A stretch of DNA of 64,000 nucleotides from Planctomycetota bacterium (GTDB lineage: Bacteria; Planctomycetota; B15-G4; SIAN01). Each line of letters opens with the position of its first letter. Within the stretch, counting starts at the first letter, position 1. The translations under genes were made by a program, and so were the position numbers. Positions 2-33,182 of the stretch are shown one piece after another. The notes below the pieces were generated by a model. The model was not told the DNA's origin. It worked only from the letters and a program-made list of their open reading frames with translations, and made no database searches. The DNA lies in NCBI GenBank assembly GCA_009691715.1, contig SIAN01000013.1, positions 24,868-88,867 of the forward strand, in the 5' to 3' direction.

Positions 2-274
2 GGTCGCAAGCCGAACAACACGAACCCCAACTTCGTGATCAATCCGAGCAACACCGATCCGGCGAGGTTCCAGTTCGAGGCCGGCAAGAAGTACACGCTG
101 CGCTTCGGGGTGATGGGCAGCAGGTTTCAGGTCAAGCTCTGGGGTGACGAAGAAGCGGTCATCCACATCGAGGACTGTCGCTGGACCGACACCCGCGCTG
201 GCGCGATCGGCCTGCAGATCCCGCCGGGATGCCGCATGCGCGTCACGGAATTCAAGCTGCGCGAGTTCAACTGA
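2..274 (+). CDS. C-terminal fragment of a protein that starts upstream of the window; possible DUF1080/LamG-like beta-sandwich C-terminus
   Basis: The frame is open from the window edge (GRKPNNTNPNFV precedes the listed Met at 35). The ending ...AGAIGLQIPPGCRMRVTEFKLREFN resembles the C-terminal strand pattern of the DUF1080 protein at 9797-11224 (...[22 protein letters not shown]). Confidence 0.55.
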   Translation, partial: GRKPNNTNPNFVINPSNTDPARFQFEAGKKYTLRFGVMGSRFQVKLWGDEEAVIHIEDCRWTDTRAGAIGLQIPPGCRMRVTEFKLREFN

Positions 275-283
275 CCGCGCGGT

Positions 284-1249
284 TCAGGGCTTCGGTGATG
301 TGGATTGGACCATCGCGTCGAAGTCGCTGTCGACGAGGTCGATGAAGTTCGCGGTCAGCTCCGGCTCGAAGTGGCTGCCCGCGCGCTCGCGGAAGAACTT
401 CGAGATCTCGGCGTGGCTCCACGCCGCCTTGTAGCTGCGGGCGTGGGAGAGCGCGTCGAAGACCTCGGCCATGATCAGGACGCGACCGGGCAGCGAGATC
501 TCTTCGCGCTTGCGGCCGTTCGGATAGCCCTGCCCATCCCACCGCTCGTGGTGCTCCACCACGCATCGGCGCACGGCGTCGAGGCCTGGCACCGGTTCGA
601 GGATCCGGTCGCCGACGGTCGGGTGCTTCTTGATGAGCTCGAACTCCTCGGGCGTGAGCTTGCCCGGTTTGGAGAGCACCGCGTCGGGAACGCCAATCTT
701 GCCGATGTCGTGCAGCGCGGCCGCGCAGTCGAGGATCTCGAGATCGTGCGCTGCGAGAGCGATCGACCGGCCGACCAGCTGACAGAGGTGGCGGACGCGA
801 TCGCCATGGCCATGGGTGGTCGGGTCCTTCGCCTCGACCGCTCGGGTCAGGGCGTCGTGCACCGCCGCGATGCGCAGGCCCGCGGACGGTCCGCGCGCTC
901 TCGCCTTCTGCAGCGCCCGCCACAGCGATGCCGAAAGATCGTCGAACCGCAGCGGTTTCAGGATGAGGTCGGTGGCACCGGAGCGGAGCGCCTCGACCGC
1001 CCGATCGACCGACGGCTCGCCGGTCATCAGGACGACGGCGGCGTCGGAGGAACCGGCGAGGGTCAGCAGCAGCAGTTCGAGCCCCGGCAGCGGCTCCATC
1101 GTCAGGTCATAGAGATGGAGATCGAAGCGGCGCGCCTGACTGAGCTCGTGAGCGTGGGTCGGGTCATCGGTCGTGACGACGTCGAAGTCGGAGCCGATCT
1201 GCGCCCGGATCAGTTCGAGGATTGCGGGGTCGTCGTCGACGACCAGCAC
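284..1249 (-). CDS. Response regulator with receiver domain fused to an HD-GYP domain (RpfG-like c-di-GMP phosphodiesterase)
   Basis: 321 aa. N-terminus MLVVDDDPAILELI... with acceptor-like YDLTM and LILKP, typical of REC. C-terminal half has HGHGDRV, AALHDIGKIGVP and HHERWDGQGYP, the HD and GYP signatures. Confidence 0.9.
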   Translation of the reverse strand: MLVVDDDPAILELIRAQIGSDFDVVTTDDPTHAHELSQARRFDLHLYDLTMEPLPGLELLLLTLAGSSDAAVVLMTGEPSVDRAVEALRSGATDLILKPLRFDDLSASLWRALQKARARGPSAGLRIAAVHDALTRAVEAKDPTTHGHGDRVRHLCQLVGRSIALAAHDLEILDCAAALHDIGKIGVPDAVLSKPGKLTPEEFELIKKHPTVGDRILEPVPGLDAVRRCVVEHHERWDGQGYPNGRKREEISLPGRVLIMAEVFDALSHARSYKAAWSHAEISKFFRERAGSHFEPELTANFIDLVDSDFDAMVQSTSPKP

Positions 1250-1453
1250 CGACGGCTTGAGCGGGTCTTGGCAGTGGCGTTCGATGGCGCGGCTCCCCTA
1301 CTTCCCAGGTCGGATCGCGAGGTGCTGCCAAGCAGGACGGCGGACGGTAGCCGAGCGAACTTGTCGGGACAATGCATGGCACGCCACATCCGCCGGTGAT
1401 GAGGCGATGATGACGCCTCATCTGGCAGGCCGGCAGGGACGACGGGAGAATCC

Positions 1454-24173: not shown

Positions 24174-25148
24174 TCATTCTCCTCCTTCTTGTAGTCGGGG
24201 CCCGGTACGGCGAAAGCCGGACTGGGCCCTGGCTATTTCCGGAGCGGCGTTGAAGAGCCGGCTCCACGGCACGAAGACCGCGTAGAGCGGCAGGTAGAGC
24301 CAGAACGGCGCCCGCATCGTGACCCAGATGCCGAGGTGGATCGCCGCCGCCGCAGGAACGAACAGCAGCGCGAGCCGCCGTTGCCACAGCACCAGCGGGA
24401 AGAGCAGTTCGACCAGCAGCGCGCCCCACGACAGCACGACGCACAGGCCGTGATGGCGCGCGAGCCAGACGCTCGAGCTCGTCCCCCAGAAGACGCCTTC
24501 CTGCAGCAGGTAGCCCTGCAGCGTGTAGCCGTTCAGCCACTGCCATCCGCTCGCGCCGAGCTTGCAGACCGCCGCCGACAGGTAGCAGAGCGCGAACAAC
24601 CACTGCATCAGCTCGAGCGGCCAGCGGGCGAGTTCGCTGGCGGCGGCAGGCGGCGACCCGCGCCGGCGGGCGAGCCATGCGTCCAGCGCCAGCGCATCTC
24701 CCGACGGCGCGGCCGCCAGCGCCAGCAGCGCCAGCACGGTGAGCGCCTCGATGTGATGGTGCTCGTGGTAGGAGTAGCCGTACCCCGAAATCAGCAGGTT
24801 GCCGAGCGCGAACAGCAGCAGCGTGGTCCGCGTGAACAGGCCCGCGAGCGCGAACGCGCCGGCGCAGATGCTGGCGCGGAGCACCCACTCCATCGCCGCG
24901 AGCGGGGGCCGGAAGCCGTCGCAAAACGGCAGCAGCAGCAGTCGCACGATCGGCACCGGCTCCCACTGCGAGTCGGGCAATGCGGCCAGCAGATCGAGCC
25001 GCCCCCACACCGGGAAGGTGAAGAGCGCGTACGGGAAGAGCATCACGAACAGCAGCGTGCCGACCACCAGCAGTCGCAGGATGGCGAGGTCGCGCACGGG
25101 CGCCGCAGCGAAGAAACGGCGCTCGACGAACTGACTGAGACGACTCAC
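24174..25148 (-). CDS. Polytopic membrane protein, HTTM (vitamin-K-dependent gamma-carboxylase-like) domain candidate
   Basis: 324 aa with about 7-8 hydrophobic helices. The N-terminal pattern VRDLAILRLLVVGTLLFVML, followed by conserved Trp/His-rich loops (YSYHEHHHIE), fits my recollection of HTTM proteins; not verified by search. The GTG start overlaps the upstream gene stop (GTGA). Confidence 0.5.
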   Translation of the reverse strand: MSRLSQFVERRFFAAAPVRDLAILRLLVVGTLLFVMLFPYALFTFPVWGRLDLLAALPDSQWEPVPIVRLLLLPFCDGFRPPLAAMEWVLRASICAGAFALAGLFTRTTLLLFALGNLLISGYGYSYHEHHHIEALTVLALLALAAAPSGDALALDAWLARRRGSPPAAASELARWPLELMQWLFALCYLSAAVCKLGASGWQWLNGYTLQGYLLQEGVFWGTSSSVWLARHHGLCVVLSWGALLVELLFPLVLWQRRLALLFVPAAAAIHLGIWVTMRAPFWLYLPLYAVFVPWSRLFNAAPEIARAQSGFRRTGPRLQEGGE

Positions 25149-29268: not shown

Positions 29269-30618
29269 ATGGCTCGACGCCCGAATTCCGCGAAGCTGCC
29301 GTTCACCCTGCTGGTCACTTCGCTGGTTGCAGCCTCTGGCTGCGACAACGCACTCCGAGGCAGTGGCGGCGCCGGGTCGACCATCGACAACACGCACTAC
29401 GAACTCACGTTTGCGTTCGACGACGGCTCGGCCGAGTCGACCGTGGTGATGGGCGCGCTTTCACGCATCGAACTGGCGCTGCCGACAGTCGGTTACTCGC
29501 GCGTGCTGTCGGTGCTGGACGACCTGGTCGACCCGGCGCGGCTCGCCGTCAGTCCGAGCGTGGATCTGGGCGATGTGTCGGGCGACTTCATCGCGGCCGG
29601 CACCAACATCGCCACCACGCTCCACGACCTTGGCCGGCTCCACGCGCTTGAGATGCCCGATGGCCGACCCGGAATCGCGATCGAGATCGATGACGGCGAG
29701 CTGCCGGCGTTCCCGATTGGCCGCATGCTCTGGACCGTGACCGTACTCGACGACATCGACCGCGTCTCGAACCCGCTGCAGGTCGGATTGACGGTGCGTG
29801 CGCCCGACCGGCCGACCGTCGCGTTGTCCTTGCAGATCCCGCCGTTCGGCTCGACCGTCCCGACCGGCGTCTCGCTTCCGATCGATGAGGAGAGCGTGCC
29901 CTACATCGGCAAGAGCCTCGACTTCGTGCTGGCGCTGCGCCTGATCCCGAATCCGGAGTCCGGCGCGATCTTCGAGAGTCTGGTCGTCGATGGCGCGATC
30001 GACATCGCGCGAGTCTCGGTCGTCGCCAACCGGAATCTGGGCGATCCCAAGAATGGCGGCTTCGATGCCGGCACCAACGTCGCGGCGCTGCTCGGTGCCG
30101 ACCTCGATGTGTTGGTCGACGCCGAGACCGGAGAGATGACGATCACGTTGCTCTTCCCGGTAGGCGCCGCCTACTCGCCGCTGCTGGGCGACACGCAGTT
30201 CACGATCTCGGCGATGGACGACGCCGACGTGCGCTCCTTCGACCAGGCGATCTCGCTCCGCGCGGTGACGCCGGTCAAGCTGTCGGCGAACGTGCAGTCG
30301 ATCCTCACGTCGAAGTGCGCGACGACCGTCTGCCACGACAACAGCAGCCCGGCCGCGGGCATGCGGCTCAACAGCGGCCGGACGTTCGGCGACACGGTGC
30401 GAATCCGCTCCGGCCAGACGCCGGAGGACTCGTGCGCGGCGAATCGCATCGAGCCCTACGTCCTCGACGCGTCGTACTTCTGGCACAAGCTCATGGACAC
30501 CCACGAGGATCCTTGTGTCGGCGGATCGGGCGGCGACATGCCTCCGACCGGAAACCTGACCGCAGGGCAGTTGGCGACCATCGAGGATTGGATTCTGCAG
30601 GGCGCGCATGACAACTGA
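29269..30618 (+). CDS. Lipoprotein of unknown function with a C-terminal Planctomycete-cytochrome-c-like (PSCyt-like) domain carrying CX4CH instead of CxxCH
   Basis: 449 aa from ATG 29269 (alternative 29239). Lipobox LLVTSLVAASGC. C-terminus VQSILTSKCATTVCHDNSSPAAGMRLNS...YFWHKL...GDMPPTGNLTAGQLATIEDWILQGA. The CATTVCH codons are at 30316-30336. Its stop overlaps the next gene start by 11 nt. Confidence 0.7.
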   Translation: MARRPNSAKLPFTLLVTSLVAASGCDNALRGSGGAGSTIDNTHYELTFAFDDGSAESTVVMGALSRIELALPTVGYSRVLSVLDDLVDPARLAVSPSVDLGDVSGDFIAAGTNIATTLHDLGRLHALEMPDGRPGIAIEIDDGELPAFPIGRMLWTVTVLDDIDRVSNPLQVGLTVRAPDRPTVALSLQIPPFGSTVPTGVSLPIDEESVPYIGKSLDFVLALRLIPNPESGAIFESLVVDGAIDIARVSVVANRNLGDPKNGGFDAGTNVAALLGADLDVLVDAETGEMTITLLFPVGAAYSPLLGDTQFTISAMDDADVRSFDQAISLRAVTPVKLSANVQSILTSKCATTVCHDNSSPAAGMRLNSGRTFGDTVRIRSGQTPEDSCAANRIEPYVLDASYFWHKLMDTHEDPCVGGSGGDMPPTGNLTAGQLATIEDWILQGAHDN

Positions 30619-32056
30619 ACCGCGTTGCGCAGTGCGCTCGGCCGTCGCTCTCGCCCTCTCCGTCGGACCGTTCGTGTCGAGCGCCGTCGCTGCTCCGACC
30701 GAACGTTTCGCGGAGCGCGAAGGTCTCGCTTGCGCCACCTGCCACGTCGGTACCGACGGCGGCCCGCTGACGGCGTTCGGCCGCGACTACCGCTGGCGCG
30801 CGCCGTTCTTCCAGGATGGCCAGGAAGGTGGCGAACTCGCCGCACCGGTGGGCGCAGGCAGCAGCTCGTTCGGCCGCTGGTCGGGCGAGCTCGCATCGTT
30901 TGCGCGGAGCGGCCGCGACCGCGCCTTCGGCGAGCGCACGCACACCTGGTCGGCGACCGAAACGCTTCGGCTCCGTGGCGACGAGTTGTTCGGCGACGAG
31001 TCGCTGTCGTTCCGCGGCGACGGCTTCGCCAGCAACTGGGACGGCAGCGGCGACTATGGCTTCGACGAAGACTCGCTGGGATTGAGCAGCGCGGAAGTGA
31101 CCTGGCGCGGCGACGCGGCCGGCTCGTTCGTTCGTTTCGGACGGCAGTTCGTCGTGGCGGGCGCAGCGACCCGTCGCGTGGATGGCGCCGCGATAAGGCA
31201 GCCGCTCGGTGAGCGACTCGAGCTCGACCTGTTCGGCGGTGCGCCAGTCGAGGACGGCCTCGGCGGGCGCGGCGGCGACCTCATCACCGGCGGCCGGCTT
31301 GGCGTGCGGCTCGGCCAATCGCTTCGTTTCGGCAGTTCGGCGTACTACGCCAAGGACCATTCCGACCCGAGCGACGTGAAGGGCGGGCTCGACTTGCAAT
31401 GGAGCCCCACGCGACGGTTCGAGCTCTTCACCCACTTCTACTGGGACTGGCTTGCCGACCAGCTCTACGACGCGCGCGCGCACCTGGTCTTCACGCCCAC
31501 GATCGAGTGGCAATTTGCGTACGACTGGACCCGCTCGGTGCCAGGCCTGTTCCTGCCGAAGAGCTCGCTCTACTCGGTCTTCTCCGACGAGGAGTACGTG
31601 GAGCACGGCCTCACGGTCACGCGCCGCTTTTCCTCCGCGCTGTCGGCCAACGTCTTCGGCCGCCACACCGACTACGCCGAGAGCGACTCGCTGGCGCAGG
31701 TTGGGAGCGGGCTCGACGCGCGCTACGGACCGAATGGCGAGGATGCGGTCGGTGCCGAGGCGGGCTGGCAGGACGAGTCGCGCACCAGCTTTGGCGGCAG
31801 CTCGACTGACGACGACGCGCTGTTCGCGCGAATCTGGCACCTGCTCTGGTGGACCGGCTCGATCTACACCGCGGTCGACGCCTCGACCTTGTTCGTGATG
31901 GACGATTCGTTCGAGCGCGATGCCGCGCTGGTCCGCATCGCCGCCGGCTACGACCCGCACGCGTGGTGGGACGCCGAGATCGGCACCGACTGGGTGCGCG
32001 ACCCCGACTTCGAGAGTCGTCTCGACTTGTTCGCGCGCCTGCGCATCCGGTTCTGA
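30608..32056 (+). CDS. Candidate fused monoheme cytochrome c - outer-membrane beta-barrel porin (Cyc2-like architecture)
   Basis: 482 aa. Signal peptide (AVRSAVALALSVGPFVSSAVAAP). A single CxxCH (FAEREGLACATCH, codons 30731-30745) lies immediately after the signal. The remaining ~430 aa are Gly/Asp/aromatic-rich with alternating-residue strands (LDLQWSPT, FELFTHFYWDW, AHLVFTPTIEWQFAYDW) and end in LRIRF, a C-terminal Phe as in OM barrels. Confidence 0.65.
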   Translation: MTTEPRCAVRSAVALALSVGPFVSSAVAAPTERFAEREGLACATCHVGTDGGPLTAFGRDYRWRAPFFQDGQEGGELAAPVGAGSSSFGRWSGELASFARSGRDRAFGERTHTWSATETLRLRGDELFGDESLSFRGDGFASNWDGSGDYGFDEDSLGLSSAEVTWRGDAAGSFVRFGRQFVVAGAATRRVDGAAIRQPLGERLELDLFGGAPVEDGLGGRGGDLITGGRLGVRLGQSLRFGSSAYYAKDHSDPSDVKGGLDLQWSPTRRFELFTHFYWDWLADQLYDARAHLVFTPTIEWQFAYDWTRSVPGLFLPKSSLYSVFSDEEYVEHGLTVTRRFSSALSANVFGRHTDYAESDSLAQVGSGLDARYGPNGEDAVGAEAGWQDESRTSFGGSSTDDDALFARIWHLLWWTGSIYTAVDASTLFVMDDSFERDAALVRIAAGYDPHAWWDAEIGTDWVRDPDFESRLDLFARLRIRF

Positions 32057-32069
32057 GCGGGAGTCGCCG

Positions 32070-33182
32070 ATGACGAAGTCGAACGCGAAGCGCACCCGCT
32101 GGGCCGTGGCGACTGCCGGCGCCCTGCTGCTGTTCGCGGCGTCGTGCATCGTCGTGACCGGTCGCACCGGCGACTCGATCCGCTTTTCTCCCGCCGCGCA
32201 CGCCGACCTGATGCAGGACTGCGATGGCTGCCACGACGGGATCGCCGGCCACGCGGTCGACGCCACGACGCGCCGGGCGCTCGAGGCGAAGTGCATCGCC
32301 TGCCACCAGGACCGGAAGGACGACTGCGCCTACTGCCACACCGATGTGGCCAACGCCGGGACCTTCCCGTACCGCGATCGCGCGCTCCTCTTCAGCCATG
32401 AGACGCACCTCGAACGGACGCACGGCGACTGCGAAGCGTGCCACGTGAACGCCCACGGGACGGTGAACTCGCTGCCCGACCCCGCCGGCCACGCAATGCC
32501 CAAGCACGCCGAATGCTTCTCCTGCCATGAAATGCAGGGCTTCTACGACCAGATGGAGTGCCGCAACTGCCATCAGGATCTGGCGCGCTACGGACTGCTG
32601 CCGTACGAGTCCTTCACGCACGCGGGCGATTTCGTCGGCCGCGGTCACGCACAGCTCCTGCGCTCGACCGGCAACGTCGCGACCTGCGCGCAGTGCCATG
32701 AGCAGTCGTCGTGCGACGAATGCCACTTTGCAGATGTGGGCGCCGGAGCGACCCGCCTCACGCCCGGAATGCGCCTGCCTGAGAAGGTCCACCTCGGGCT
32801 GATCCACCGCGGCGATTACCTCTTCCGCCATCCATGGGACGCGCGCAGCGACCCGGCCTCATGCGTGAAGTGCCACTCGACGAGCTATTGCCGCGACTGC
32901 CACGATGACCGCGGTCTGTCGGCGAAGGCCGCCTTGACGCGCACCGACGGCTTCCAGTTCCACGGGCCGGGCGTGCTCTTCCCCGGATCGAGCGAGTTCC
33001 ATGGCACCGCCGCGCGCCGCGATCCGATCTCCTGCGCCGCCTGCCACGAGGACGGCTCGCAGGCCAACTGCACCAGCTGCCATCGCGAAGGCGCATTCGG
33101 CGGCAACCCGCATCCAGCGGGATTCAAGAGTCGCCTCAACAAGCGGACGGCGTCGGTCTGCCGGCTCTGCCACACGAAGTGA
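32070..33182 (+). CDS. Multiheme c-type cytochrome lipoprotein with 13 CxxCH motifs
   Basis: 370 aa from ATG 32070 (GGGAG 6 nt upstream). Lipobox LLLFAASC. CxxCH sites: CDGCH, CIACH, CAYCH, CEACH, CFSCH, CRNCH, CAQCH, CDECH, CVKCH, CRDCH, CAACH, CTSCH, CRLCH. Many additional His residues could serve as distal ligands. Confidence 0.88.
   Translation: MTKSNAKRTRWAVATAGALLLFAASCIVVTGRTGDSIRFSPAAHADLMQDCDGCHDGIAGHAVDATTRRALEAKCIACHQDRKDDCAYCHTDVANAGTFPYRDRALLFSHETHLERTHGDCEACHVNAHGTVNSLPDPAGHAMPKHAECFSCHEMQGFYDQMECRNCHQDLARYGLLPYESFTHAGDFVGRGHAQLLRSTGNVATCAQCHEQSSCDECHFADVGAGATRLTPGMRLPEKVHLGLIHRGDYLFRHPWDARSDPASCVKCHSTSYCRDCHDDRGLSAKAALTRTDGFQFHGPGVLFPGSSEFHGTAARRDPISCAACHEDGSQANCTSCHREGAFGGNPHPAGFKSRLNKRTASVCRLCHTK

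Follow-up and report, generated by a model that had tools for sequence, protein, structure and literature searches.

A 13-haem lipoprotein cytochrome encoded behind a haem-bearing barrel in a Planctomycetota genome: the probable wire of a variant porin-cytochrome conduit

What is the function of a lipoprotein that carries 13 CxxCH haem-binding motifs in 370 residues and is encoded directly behind an outer-membrane barrel in a bacterium of the Planctomycetota? The question is raised by a gene at 32070-33182 (+ strand) of the window, by which we mean the whole stretch of 64,000 nucleotides (nt) that was analysed (positions 24,868 to 88,867 of contig SIAN01000013.1, assembly GCA_009691715.1). Through conduits made of a porin and a multihaem cytochrome, electrons can pass between Gram-negative bacteria and minerals, humics, electrodes, or partner cells; to our knowledge, a structure exists for the Mtr system alone, and no more than a few of the porin-cytochrome (Pcc) systems have been tested. 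A sequence-only reading of the gene had proposed that its product relays electrons either across the periplasm or onto a barrel partner. Our analysis favours the barrel: the protein probably serves as the haem wire in an outer-membrane conduit of the Pcc porin-cytochrome type, of which it would represent a clade-specific variant. This conclusion is carried by the conserved adjacency of the cytochrome and barrel genes, by the homology of both to an Anaeromyxobacter-type Pcc pair, and by the existence of barrel::cytochrome fusions.

The open reading frame (ORF) at 32070-33182 is translated without interruption or internal stop into 370 amino acids, and the 13 motifs first counted are all there (CxxCH starting at residues 51, 75, 86, 121, 149, 164, 206, 215, 265, 274, 322, 334, and 364). 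Their density is one per 28.5 residues in the precursor, as had been estimated, and one per 26.5 in the mature protein of 345 amino acids, whose computed mass with 13 haems is about 45.6 kDa. The protein contains 29 His, 27 Cys, and 6 Met, and a scan of its whole length found neither CX3CH or CX4CH motifs nor a CxxCK or other catalytic haem motif. Shuffling its composition in 20,000 trials gave a mean of 0.15 CxxCH and a maximum of 3, so that chance is no explanation for 13; from the six-frame composition of the window, 0.006 CxxCH would be expected per 370 amino acids, and among the stop-to-stop frames of 100 or more amino acids in the window, that of the cytochrome alone has at least two such motifs. 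The gene starts 13 nt past the stop codon of the barrel gene (30608-32056), with a GGGAG 6 nt upstream of its ATG; a promoter and terminator scan returned 0 promoters and one terminator-like site, fewer than the shuffle mean. An alternative ATG at 31920 was considered and rejected, as it implies a 137-nt overlap with the barrel gene, adds residues that are not signal-like, and disagrees with the N-termini of homologues, which in 20 of 20 close homologues align at the signal-peptide region. ATG 32070 is therefore the best start. The wrong start or frame for which the sequence-only reading had allowed thus did not materialize, the ORF being intact and collinear with all homologues. This integrity, together with the invariance of all haem Cys and His and of 12 further His, and with compact junctions (an overlap of 11 nt between the barrel gene and the first gene of the unit, and a gap of 13 nt behind the barrel gene), makes it extremely improbable that the gene is a non-functional or unexpressed relic in this genome.

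A word-indexed search returned 496 homologues of the cytochrome, and an exhaustive search of 1.84 billion representatives returned 704 clusters at E values of at most 1e-3, 83 of them at or below 1e-30. The closest relatives, all with 13 haems, come from Planctomycetota metagenome-assembled genomes (49-76% identity), and none of the 13 motifs varies among 21 close sequences. About 100 more distant relatives (35-42% identity), found in Anaeromyxobacter paludicola, other Myxococcota, and metagenome contigs, retain 12-13 motifs; the A. paludicola homologue aligns with residues 51-369 at 38% identity (E 9e-62). The related-locus search, run with the close-clade alignment, reached Planctomycetota and Gemmatimonadota only, not Myxococcota. 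The cytochrome gene directly follows a haem-porin homologue at all six informative loci (L001/L008, L003, L009, L010, L011, and L012), which differ in their flanks, and five further cytochrome/haem-porin pairs are linked by the matching lengths of their contigs. One close relative's locus also has the guaB-guaA and glycosyltransferase/sulfatase flanks of the window. At all three distant loci examined (A. paludicola and two metagenome contigs), the cytochrome is the third gene of a fixed trio. The first gene encodes a lipoprotein cytochrome of 7, 10, or 26 haems, which in two of the three loci bears the Geobacter CxxxxCH...CxxCH motif (Pfam GSu_C4xC__C2xCH); the second encodes a haem-less secreted porin-like protein of 425-536 amino acids, and the third the 12/13-haem cytochrome. 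The Gemmatimonadota show a more distant layout, in which a haem-less protein stands between a 17-/18-haem and a 16-haem protein; the third-gene cytochromes of this layout have an ordinary signal peptide without Cys and are therefore periplasmic proteins.

The partner gene (30608-32056, + strand) encodes a 482-residue protein identified as an outer-membrane barrel by an AlphaFold2 (AF2) model, Foldseek, and hhalign. It comprises, in this order, a signal peptide, a single-haem peptide, an Ala/Gly/Ser-rich linker of variable length, the barrel, and a C-terminal RIRF. The haem motif, CATCH (C42-H46, at 30731-30745), is an invariant CxxCH in 16 sequences. The model contains 22 strands with short loops over residues 89-481 (30872-32050); most 10-residue blocks have a predicted local distance difference test score (pLDDT) of about 80-90 with dips in the loops, and the haem-bearing N-terminus, below 50, is disordered. 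The Foldseek matches of the barrel are ushers, TonB-dependent transporters, and OprD/AlgE. Against the A. paludicola porin-like protein, the middle gene of its trio, hhalign gave 98.7% (E 3.7e-16 over 336 columns) and tblastn an E value of 6.6e-9. Cytochrome and barrel are thus both homologous to the A. paludicola pair, and we therefore conclude that they share common descent with the Anaeromyxobacter porin-cytochrome pair. Two further residues of the barrel are conserved along with its haem: H276 (31433-31435) is invariant in 16 of 16 haem-porins and H411 (31838-31840) in 15 of 16, whereas three haem-less porins have F/L/S and G/G/A at the respective positions. Strand parity in the model would place H276 on the lumen-facing side, and it is a candidate for the distal ligand of the tethered porin haem.

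In five of the best 150 representatives (P0179, P0200, P0203, P0211, and P0212; 774-836 amino acids), barrel and cytochrome are fused. All five C-terminal halves contain the whole mature cytochrome (hidden Markov model [HMM] E values of 1e-86 to 1e-105) with its 13 CxxCH and without the lipobox Cys, and in four of the proteins the Pcc-porin HMM recognizes the N-terminal half (E 3.9e-31 to 5.2e-12). For P0179, BLASTP against the A. paludicola porin gave 2e-19 and hhalign against the haem-porin profile 98.1%. About 25 residues link the barrel to the first c7-like module of the cytochrome (see below). Both termini of outer-membrane barrels are periplasmic, and OmpA provides a precedent for a periplasmic domain that follows a barrel. 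The fusions therefore place the N-terminus of the cytochrome at the periplasmic rim, where a lipid anchor would hold it, and they argue for a 1:1 complex between barrel and cytochrome. Along with the non-lipidated Gemmatimonadota relatives, they also support a periplasm-side, barrel-docked cytochrome over a surface-displayed one.

The cytochrome itself is modular, its haems being distributed as 3+3+2+2+2+1 = 13. A first c7-like trihaem module (residues 36-90, haems 1-3; 32175-32339) was delimited by NCBIfam c7 and by alignments with PpcA and GSU1996, and a second (residues 105-168, haems 4-6; 32382-32573) by Pfam Cytochrome_C7 and alignments with 3ouq and 3ov0. Self-alignment then revealed three dihaem repeats (residues 178-219, 240-278, and 292-338, haems 7-12; 32601-33083) of the form [F/I]H-x-G-D-[F/Y]...H...C-x-x-C-H-(3-6)-C-x-x-C-H. 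The last haem lies in a C-terminal unit (N-P-H348-P ... C364-R-L-C-H368; 33105-33173), recognized by its conservation and by Pfam Paired_CXXCH_1 (residues 332-370); P347, H348, P349, and C364-H368 are invariant across 65 sequences. Cytochrome_C7 matched residues 107-169 (E 2e-11), NCBIfam cytochrome c7 matched residues 13-90 below threshold, and the best solved-structure match of the single sequence was 3ouq, the hexahaem fragment of GSU1996 (1.4e-7), followed by PpcA-type c7 cytochromes. The profile of the 65-member family matched full-length GSU1996 (3ov0_A, E 4.9e-27) in an alignment confined to profile positions 33-167, that is, to the first two modules; for the 200 C-terminal residues, which contain the dihaem repeats, the profile-versus-structure comparison found no solved homologue. 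Of the c3/c7-type packing proposed at first, the c7 part thus holds for the two trihaem modules, while the remaining residues form dihaem repeats, and the HMM comparison with the c7 polymer GSU1996 that had been suggested is positive for the N-terminal modules only. Within the close clade, haems 4 and 5 are separated by an Ala/Pro/Gly-rich insertion (32454-32498, residues 129-143; alignment columns about 180-215), the length of which varies widely, from about 12 to about 45 residues, and which probably forms an exposed, flexible loop. Longer members of the family arose by module duplication: P0147 and P0168 have 19 haems, with the first two c7-like modules in duplicate, and P0243, P0253, P0256, and P0261 have 16, which indicates that the wire evolves in modular steps.

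The match to GSU1996 bears on the other role initially proposed, electron relay across the periplasm. The cytochrome might be a free-standing store or relay, periplasmic or anchored to the inner membrane, comparable with the GSU1996 'nanowire' or capacitor, and the adjacency of its gene to that of the barrel would then reflect co-regulation only. The best solved relative is indeed a periplasmic c7 polymer (E 4.9e-27), and the lipoprotein may be sorted to the inner membrane. However, the likeness to GSU1996 stops after the first two modules, the adjacency to the barrel is conserved in Planctomycetota and Myxococcota, with a similar three-gene layout in Gemmatimonadota, and the repeated fusions with their linker of about 25 residues imply direct docking rather than a distant relay. 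We therefore regard such a free-standing relay as decidedly unlikely.

A lipid anchor had also been predicted at the outset. Residues 1-25 form a signal peptide followed by the lipobox Cys26 (FAAS|C; 32070-32147, assigned from the sequence and from Cys conservation); the lipobox LLLFAASC occupies residues 19-26 and is preceded by a basic n-region, KSNAKRTR. Every Cys except Cys26 belongs to a haem motif, and the Cys26 column contains Cys in 95% of the close and 98% of the distant members among 65 sequences; across about 120 homologues, the number of Cys is approximately twice the number of haems plus one. The genome encodes Lgt and LspA, as well as ResB and CcsA, the system II proteins for cytochrome c maturation. 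Signal peptide, lipobox, conserved Cys, and processing enzymes are therefore all present as in bacterial lipoproteins, and acylation of Cys26 is predicted, in agreement with the membrane tethering first suggested.

Lipidation is compatible with a different topology, in which the cytochrome would be flipped outward like MtrC, OmcA, or OmcB, dock on the outer face of the barrel, and act as a surface-exposed terminal reductase in contact with minerals, electrons crossing the membrane via the barrel's own haem or another protein. Known extracellular cytochromes are lipoproteins too, the operon of the clade encodes no other multihaem partner, and faint matches to Pfam MtrC-MtrF_II-IV occur in distant homologues. 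On the other hand, a membrane of about 4 nm is too thick to be spanned by one porin haem, and a multihaem chain would still be needed in the lumen. Moreover, in the fusions the cytochrome follows the barrel's periplasmic C-terminus, its Gemmatimonadota counterparts are non-lipidated and periplasmic, the extracellular role in Myxococcota clusters is already filled by a separate GSu_C4xC__C2xCH lipoprotein cytochrome, and the cytochrome matches no OmcA/MtrC family. Such a surface reductase is thus unlikely, and we retain the barrel-docked wire.

The many spare His residues had been taken as a sign of bis-His ligation, which is essentially right. Twelve non-motif His are invariant in the 21-member close clade (H44, H110, H113, H129, H146, H184, H193, H246, H254, H298, H311, and H348), as is M155; H184/H193, H246/H254, and H298/H311 recur in pairs across the three dihaem repeats. 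Judged by conservation, these 12 His and one Met are 13 candidate distal ligands for 13 haems, and ligation is probably His/His for 12 haems and His/Met for one. When the 21 close-clade sequences are compared with 44 more distant members (65 in total), four positions differ: His at position 41, the first of the F-x-H-x-x-H signature of module 1, is present in 0% of the close clade and 100% of the distant members; His at 129 is present in 100% and 0%, respectively; position 146 is His in the close clade and Met in 95% of the distant members; and position 155 is Met in the close clade and His in 82% of the distant members. The ligands of the first two modules thus appear to have been rewired in the Planctomycetota lineage.

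With His41 lost and His and Met exchanged at positions 146 and 155, a single haem could be tuned or opened, and one may therefore ask whether the protein is a catalytic multihaem enzyme acting on a nitrogen, sulfur, or metal compound at a haem with open coordination, to which the barrel would supply the substrate. This is very improbable. The losses are balanced by the gains of H129 and H146, which leaves 13 conserved ligands for 13 haems; catalytic haem motifs such as CxxCK are missing; 26.5 residues per haem leave little room for a substrate pocket; and the NrfA, HAO, octahaem, and MccA families were unmatched in Pfam and NCBIfam. Thirteen invariant motifs and 13 candidate ligands at this density argue for a wire, not an enzyme.

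The three-gene unit opens with a lineage-specific lipoprotein gene (29269-30618, + strand; 449 amino acids, lipobox Cys25), the product of which has a C-terminal CX4CH domain (CATTVCH, 30316-30336). Neither this protein nor the barrel was matched by any Pfam or NCBIfam model, even at E values up to 10. Only 10 homologues of the first lipoprotein were found, none with a Pfam match; its C-terminal domain conserves C(x4)CH (C(x5)CH in L012) and two further Cys. Its gene is found at L001/L008, L003, L009, and L012, and is absent at L010. It occupies the slot of the multihaem extracellular cytochromes in Myxococcota clusters. In a maximum-likelihood tree of the cytochromes, the Planctomycetota clade is monophyletic (100/100) with a long stem, and after rooting on the Gemmatimonadota 16-haem proteins it nests inside the 12/13-haem family, which implies that the special features of the clade are derived. 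These would be the gain of the porin haem, the replacement of the extracellular multihaem cytochrome by the CX4CH lipoprotein, and the rewiring of axial ligands. A contig labelled 'Bacillota bacterium' (L016, JBLMWC010000189.1) has a Gemmatimonadota-type 18-haem/porin/16-haem cluster and groups inside Gemmatimonadota in the tree; its label may result from mis-binning or transfer. At L003, a distant Planctomycetota locus, and at none of the other loci, the strand opposite the three-gene unit encodes a fused Ferric_reduct/Rieske membrane protein (222-1253, minus strand), some 4 kb upstream of the unit.

Taken together, these data suggest the following scheme, in which we infer complex formation, barrel insertion, the choice of the end that faces outward, the axial ligands, and the electron-transfer function itself. 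The precursor would be exported by Sec, the 13 c-type haems would be attached by the system II proteins ResB/CcsA, and Cys26 would be lipidated by Lgt before cleavage by LspA. Held by the lipid anchor through a linker of about 12 residues, the c7-like modules would then lie against the inner leaflet of the outer membrane, next to the barrel's periplasmic mouth, where electrons could pass between them and periplasmic carriers. The remainder of the chain, with the dihaem repeats and the terminal haem, would enter the barrel lumen, as MtrA does in MtrB, and with about one haem per 26 residues a continuous path through the membrane could be formed. In Myxococcota relatives, the extracellular multihaem lipoprotein encoded by the first gene would complete the conduit, and in the Planctomycetota clade, the lineage-specific C(x4)CH lipoprotein would replace this extracellular partner and the tethered haem of the barrel would provide a 14th site.

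Several points weigh against this assignment. The sequence of the cytochrome would also allow inner-membrane anchoring or surface exposure, and the proposal that it enters the barrel, and with which polarity, draws on the analogy with MtrA in MtrB and on the fusions alone. The AF2 model of the cytochrome, computed from the 65-sequence alignment and built haem-free, is only moderate (pLDDT 73.5, predicted template modelling score 0.52) and does not establish length or shape; a Foldseek search of this model against the PDB returned no match. As haem-less models of multihaem proteins have too little secondary structure, we make no fold-level claim for the cytochrome. The A. paludicola homologue is a presumed rather than an established member of the published Anaeromyxobacter group of Adeh_3392 (see below). 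Finally, a quinol dehydrogenase of the NapC/NirT/CymA type was not found in the genome, the assembly of which is 85% complete (3.81 Mb in 65 contigs, 68.7% GC).

The same features may be pushed one step further. In the Planctomycetota clade, the pair could be a chimera of Cyc2 and Pcc, a minimal self-contained conduit in which the tethered haem peptide of the barrel would fold back into the 22-strand lumen, so that a His276-ligated porin haem sits there beside the threaded 13-haem wire. The porin haem may then be the 14th and outermost redox site, at which soluble Fe(II)/Mn(II) or a chelated metal may react inside the pore, by analogy with what has been proposed for Cyc2, electrons leaving via a Pcc-type multihaem wire rather than via small soluble carriers. 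The ligand rewiring (H41, H129, 146/155) may be an adaptation to this new haem neighbour, and the CX4CH lipoprotein may be a new kind of surface partner. We consider this extension doubtful.

Other multihaem proteins are encoded elsewhere in the genome. A second, unrelated candidate conduit at C57:69300-73970 includes, besides a 23-haem protein, another 13-haem lipoprotein and a 515-residue barrel ending in TWRF, and lies about 7 kb downstream of the genome's only ResB and CcsA genes (C57:60415-62758). We rejected its 13-haem lipoprotein as a paralogue of the cytochrome described here, the similarity (27% identity, E 1.7e-5) being motif-driven. Contig C24 contains several multihaem ORFs (48750-64134 and 114076-117081), including those of a 415-residue 10-haem protein with an N-terminal hydrophobic segment and of a 9-haem protein of about 1250 residues, and contig C60 contains a 10-haem ORF of about 1000 residues similar to the C24 set. 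These proteins are possible inner-membrane or periplasmic partners; the NCBIfam scan, confined to the 415-residue protein of this set, gave sub-threshold matches only.

Several consequences follow for the class as a whole. The Anaeromyxobacter-type Pcc pair is extended to non-anammox Planctomycetota, usually regarded as aerobic heterotrophs, one genome of which contains two candidate conduits. The alternation of lipobox and fusion gives the family a testable topology, with the N-terminal c7 modules at the periplasmic rim. Moreover, the derived form, with a haem-bearing barrel and no extracellular multihaem cytochrome, bridges the fused monohaem porin of Cyc2 and the sheathed wire of Mtr and Pcc systems.

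How does this unit compare with known systems? GSU1996 (PDB 3OV0, 3OUQ) shares with the cytochrome the c7-type trihaem domains of the two N-terminal modules, with their F-x-H-x-x-H signature (without its first His in module 1 of the clade), and essentially the same haem density (318 amino acids for 12 haems). It differs in consisting of four c7 domains throughout and in being soluble and periplasmic, whereas here only residues 33-168 or thereabouts are c7-like and the protein is predicted to be lipidated and linked to a barrel. We thus rejected a c7 polymer as a description of the whole protein, as residues 178-368 are made of dihaem repeats and one haem.

In the Cyc2 proteins of Fe(II) oxidizers, a 16-stranded barrel carries one haem, with AXPXFAR[Q/K][T/Y] 5 amino acids upstream and PXL 4 amino acids downstream of CxxCH (Keffer et al. 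2021, PMC8406198). The partner barrel likewise has a single N-terminal CxxCH, preceded by an A-x-P...F-A-x-R string and followed by P-x-L, but its context (AAPTERFAERE-GLA-CATCH-VGTDGG-PLT) gives spacings of 3 amino acids upstream and 6 downstream, and it is a 22-strand homologue of Pcc porins, in every case paired with a 13-haem cytochrome. With 22 rather than 16 strands and a signature only loosely similar, its identification as Cyc2 was rejected.

The structural paradigm for a wire in a barrel is Shewanella MtrCAB (PDB 6R2Q), in which the decahaem MtrA lies inside MtrB. MtrA differs from the cytochrome in having 10 haems and no lipid anchor, and MtrB has 26 strands versus 22 here; the family profile matched 6r2q_A at E 3.8e-4 only. 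The sequence-only reading had advised HMM searches against OmcA/MtrC, NrfB, and DmsE/MtrA, and these came back negative: the cytochrome matched neither the decahaem DmsE/MtrA model (TIGR03508; NCBIfam at E values up to 0.01) nor OmcA/MtrC (TIGR03507 in NCBIfam, MtrC-MtrF domains in Pfam), and among the NrfB/NrfH/NapC families of NCBIfam only NrfH appeared, below threshold (17.5 bits for a cut-off of 134). Identities as MtrA, MtrC/OmcA, or NrfB were accordingly rejected. Pairs of MtrA and MtrB without MtrC also work (Shi et al. 2014, PMC4245776). The OmbB-OmaB-OmcB system of Geobacter sulfurreducens (and Ext; Liu et al. 2014), compared here by its description, likewise groups the genes of a barrel, of a multihaem cytochrome on the periplasmic side, and of a lipoprotein partner, but in the order ombB-omaB-omcB, with an 8-haem periplasmic OmaB and a 12-haem extracellular lipoprotein, OmcB.

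The closest likeness is to the pcc clusters of Anaeromyxobacter, in which a porin-like protein is encoded with a 'periplasmic' 12-haem c-type cytochrome of 338-344 amino acids, for example Adeh_3392, and this pair alone was proposed to be able to span the outer membrane (Shi, Fredrickson & Zachara 2014, Front Microbiol 5:657, PMC4245776). Pcc porins have 18-22 predicted strands and Pcc cytochromes 5-14 CxxCH, and a 14-haem version was listed for the planctomycete Kuenenia (Shi et al. 2014, PMC4245776), later invoked for extracellular electron transfer in anammox. The unit described here has the components of this class: a secreted cytochrome with multiple CxxCH, adjacency to a porin, a 22-strand partner that falls within the 18-22 range, and homology of both genes to the Anaeromyxobacter cluster. 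In both cases, a cytochrome of about 340-370 residues and 12-13 haems follows directly a homologous porin-like gene, and haem and ligand positions are invariant across the family. Unlike its Anaeromyxobacter counterpart, the porin of the window has an additional N-terminal CxxCH peptide together with H276 and H411, the first gene encodes a non-multihaem lipoprotein instead of a 7-26-haem cytochrome, and the axial ligands have changed (H41 lost, H129 gained, M146 to H, H155 to M), all in a monophyletic clade on a long branch with Planctomycetota hosts. The cytochrome is thus a clear member of a described class, and known biology is refined rather than overturned; what is new lies at the level of the system, in a haem-bearing porin, the lack of an extracellular multihaem partner, and a rewired set of ligands.

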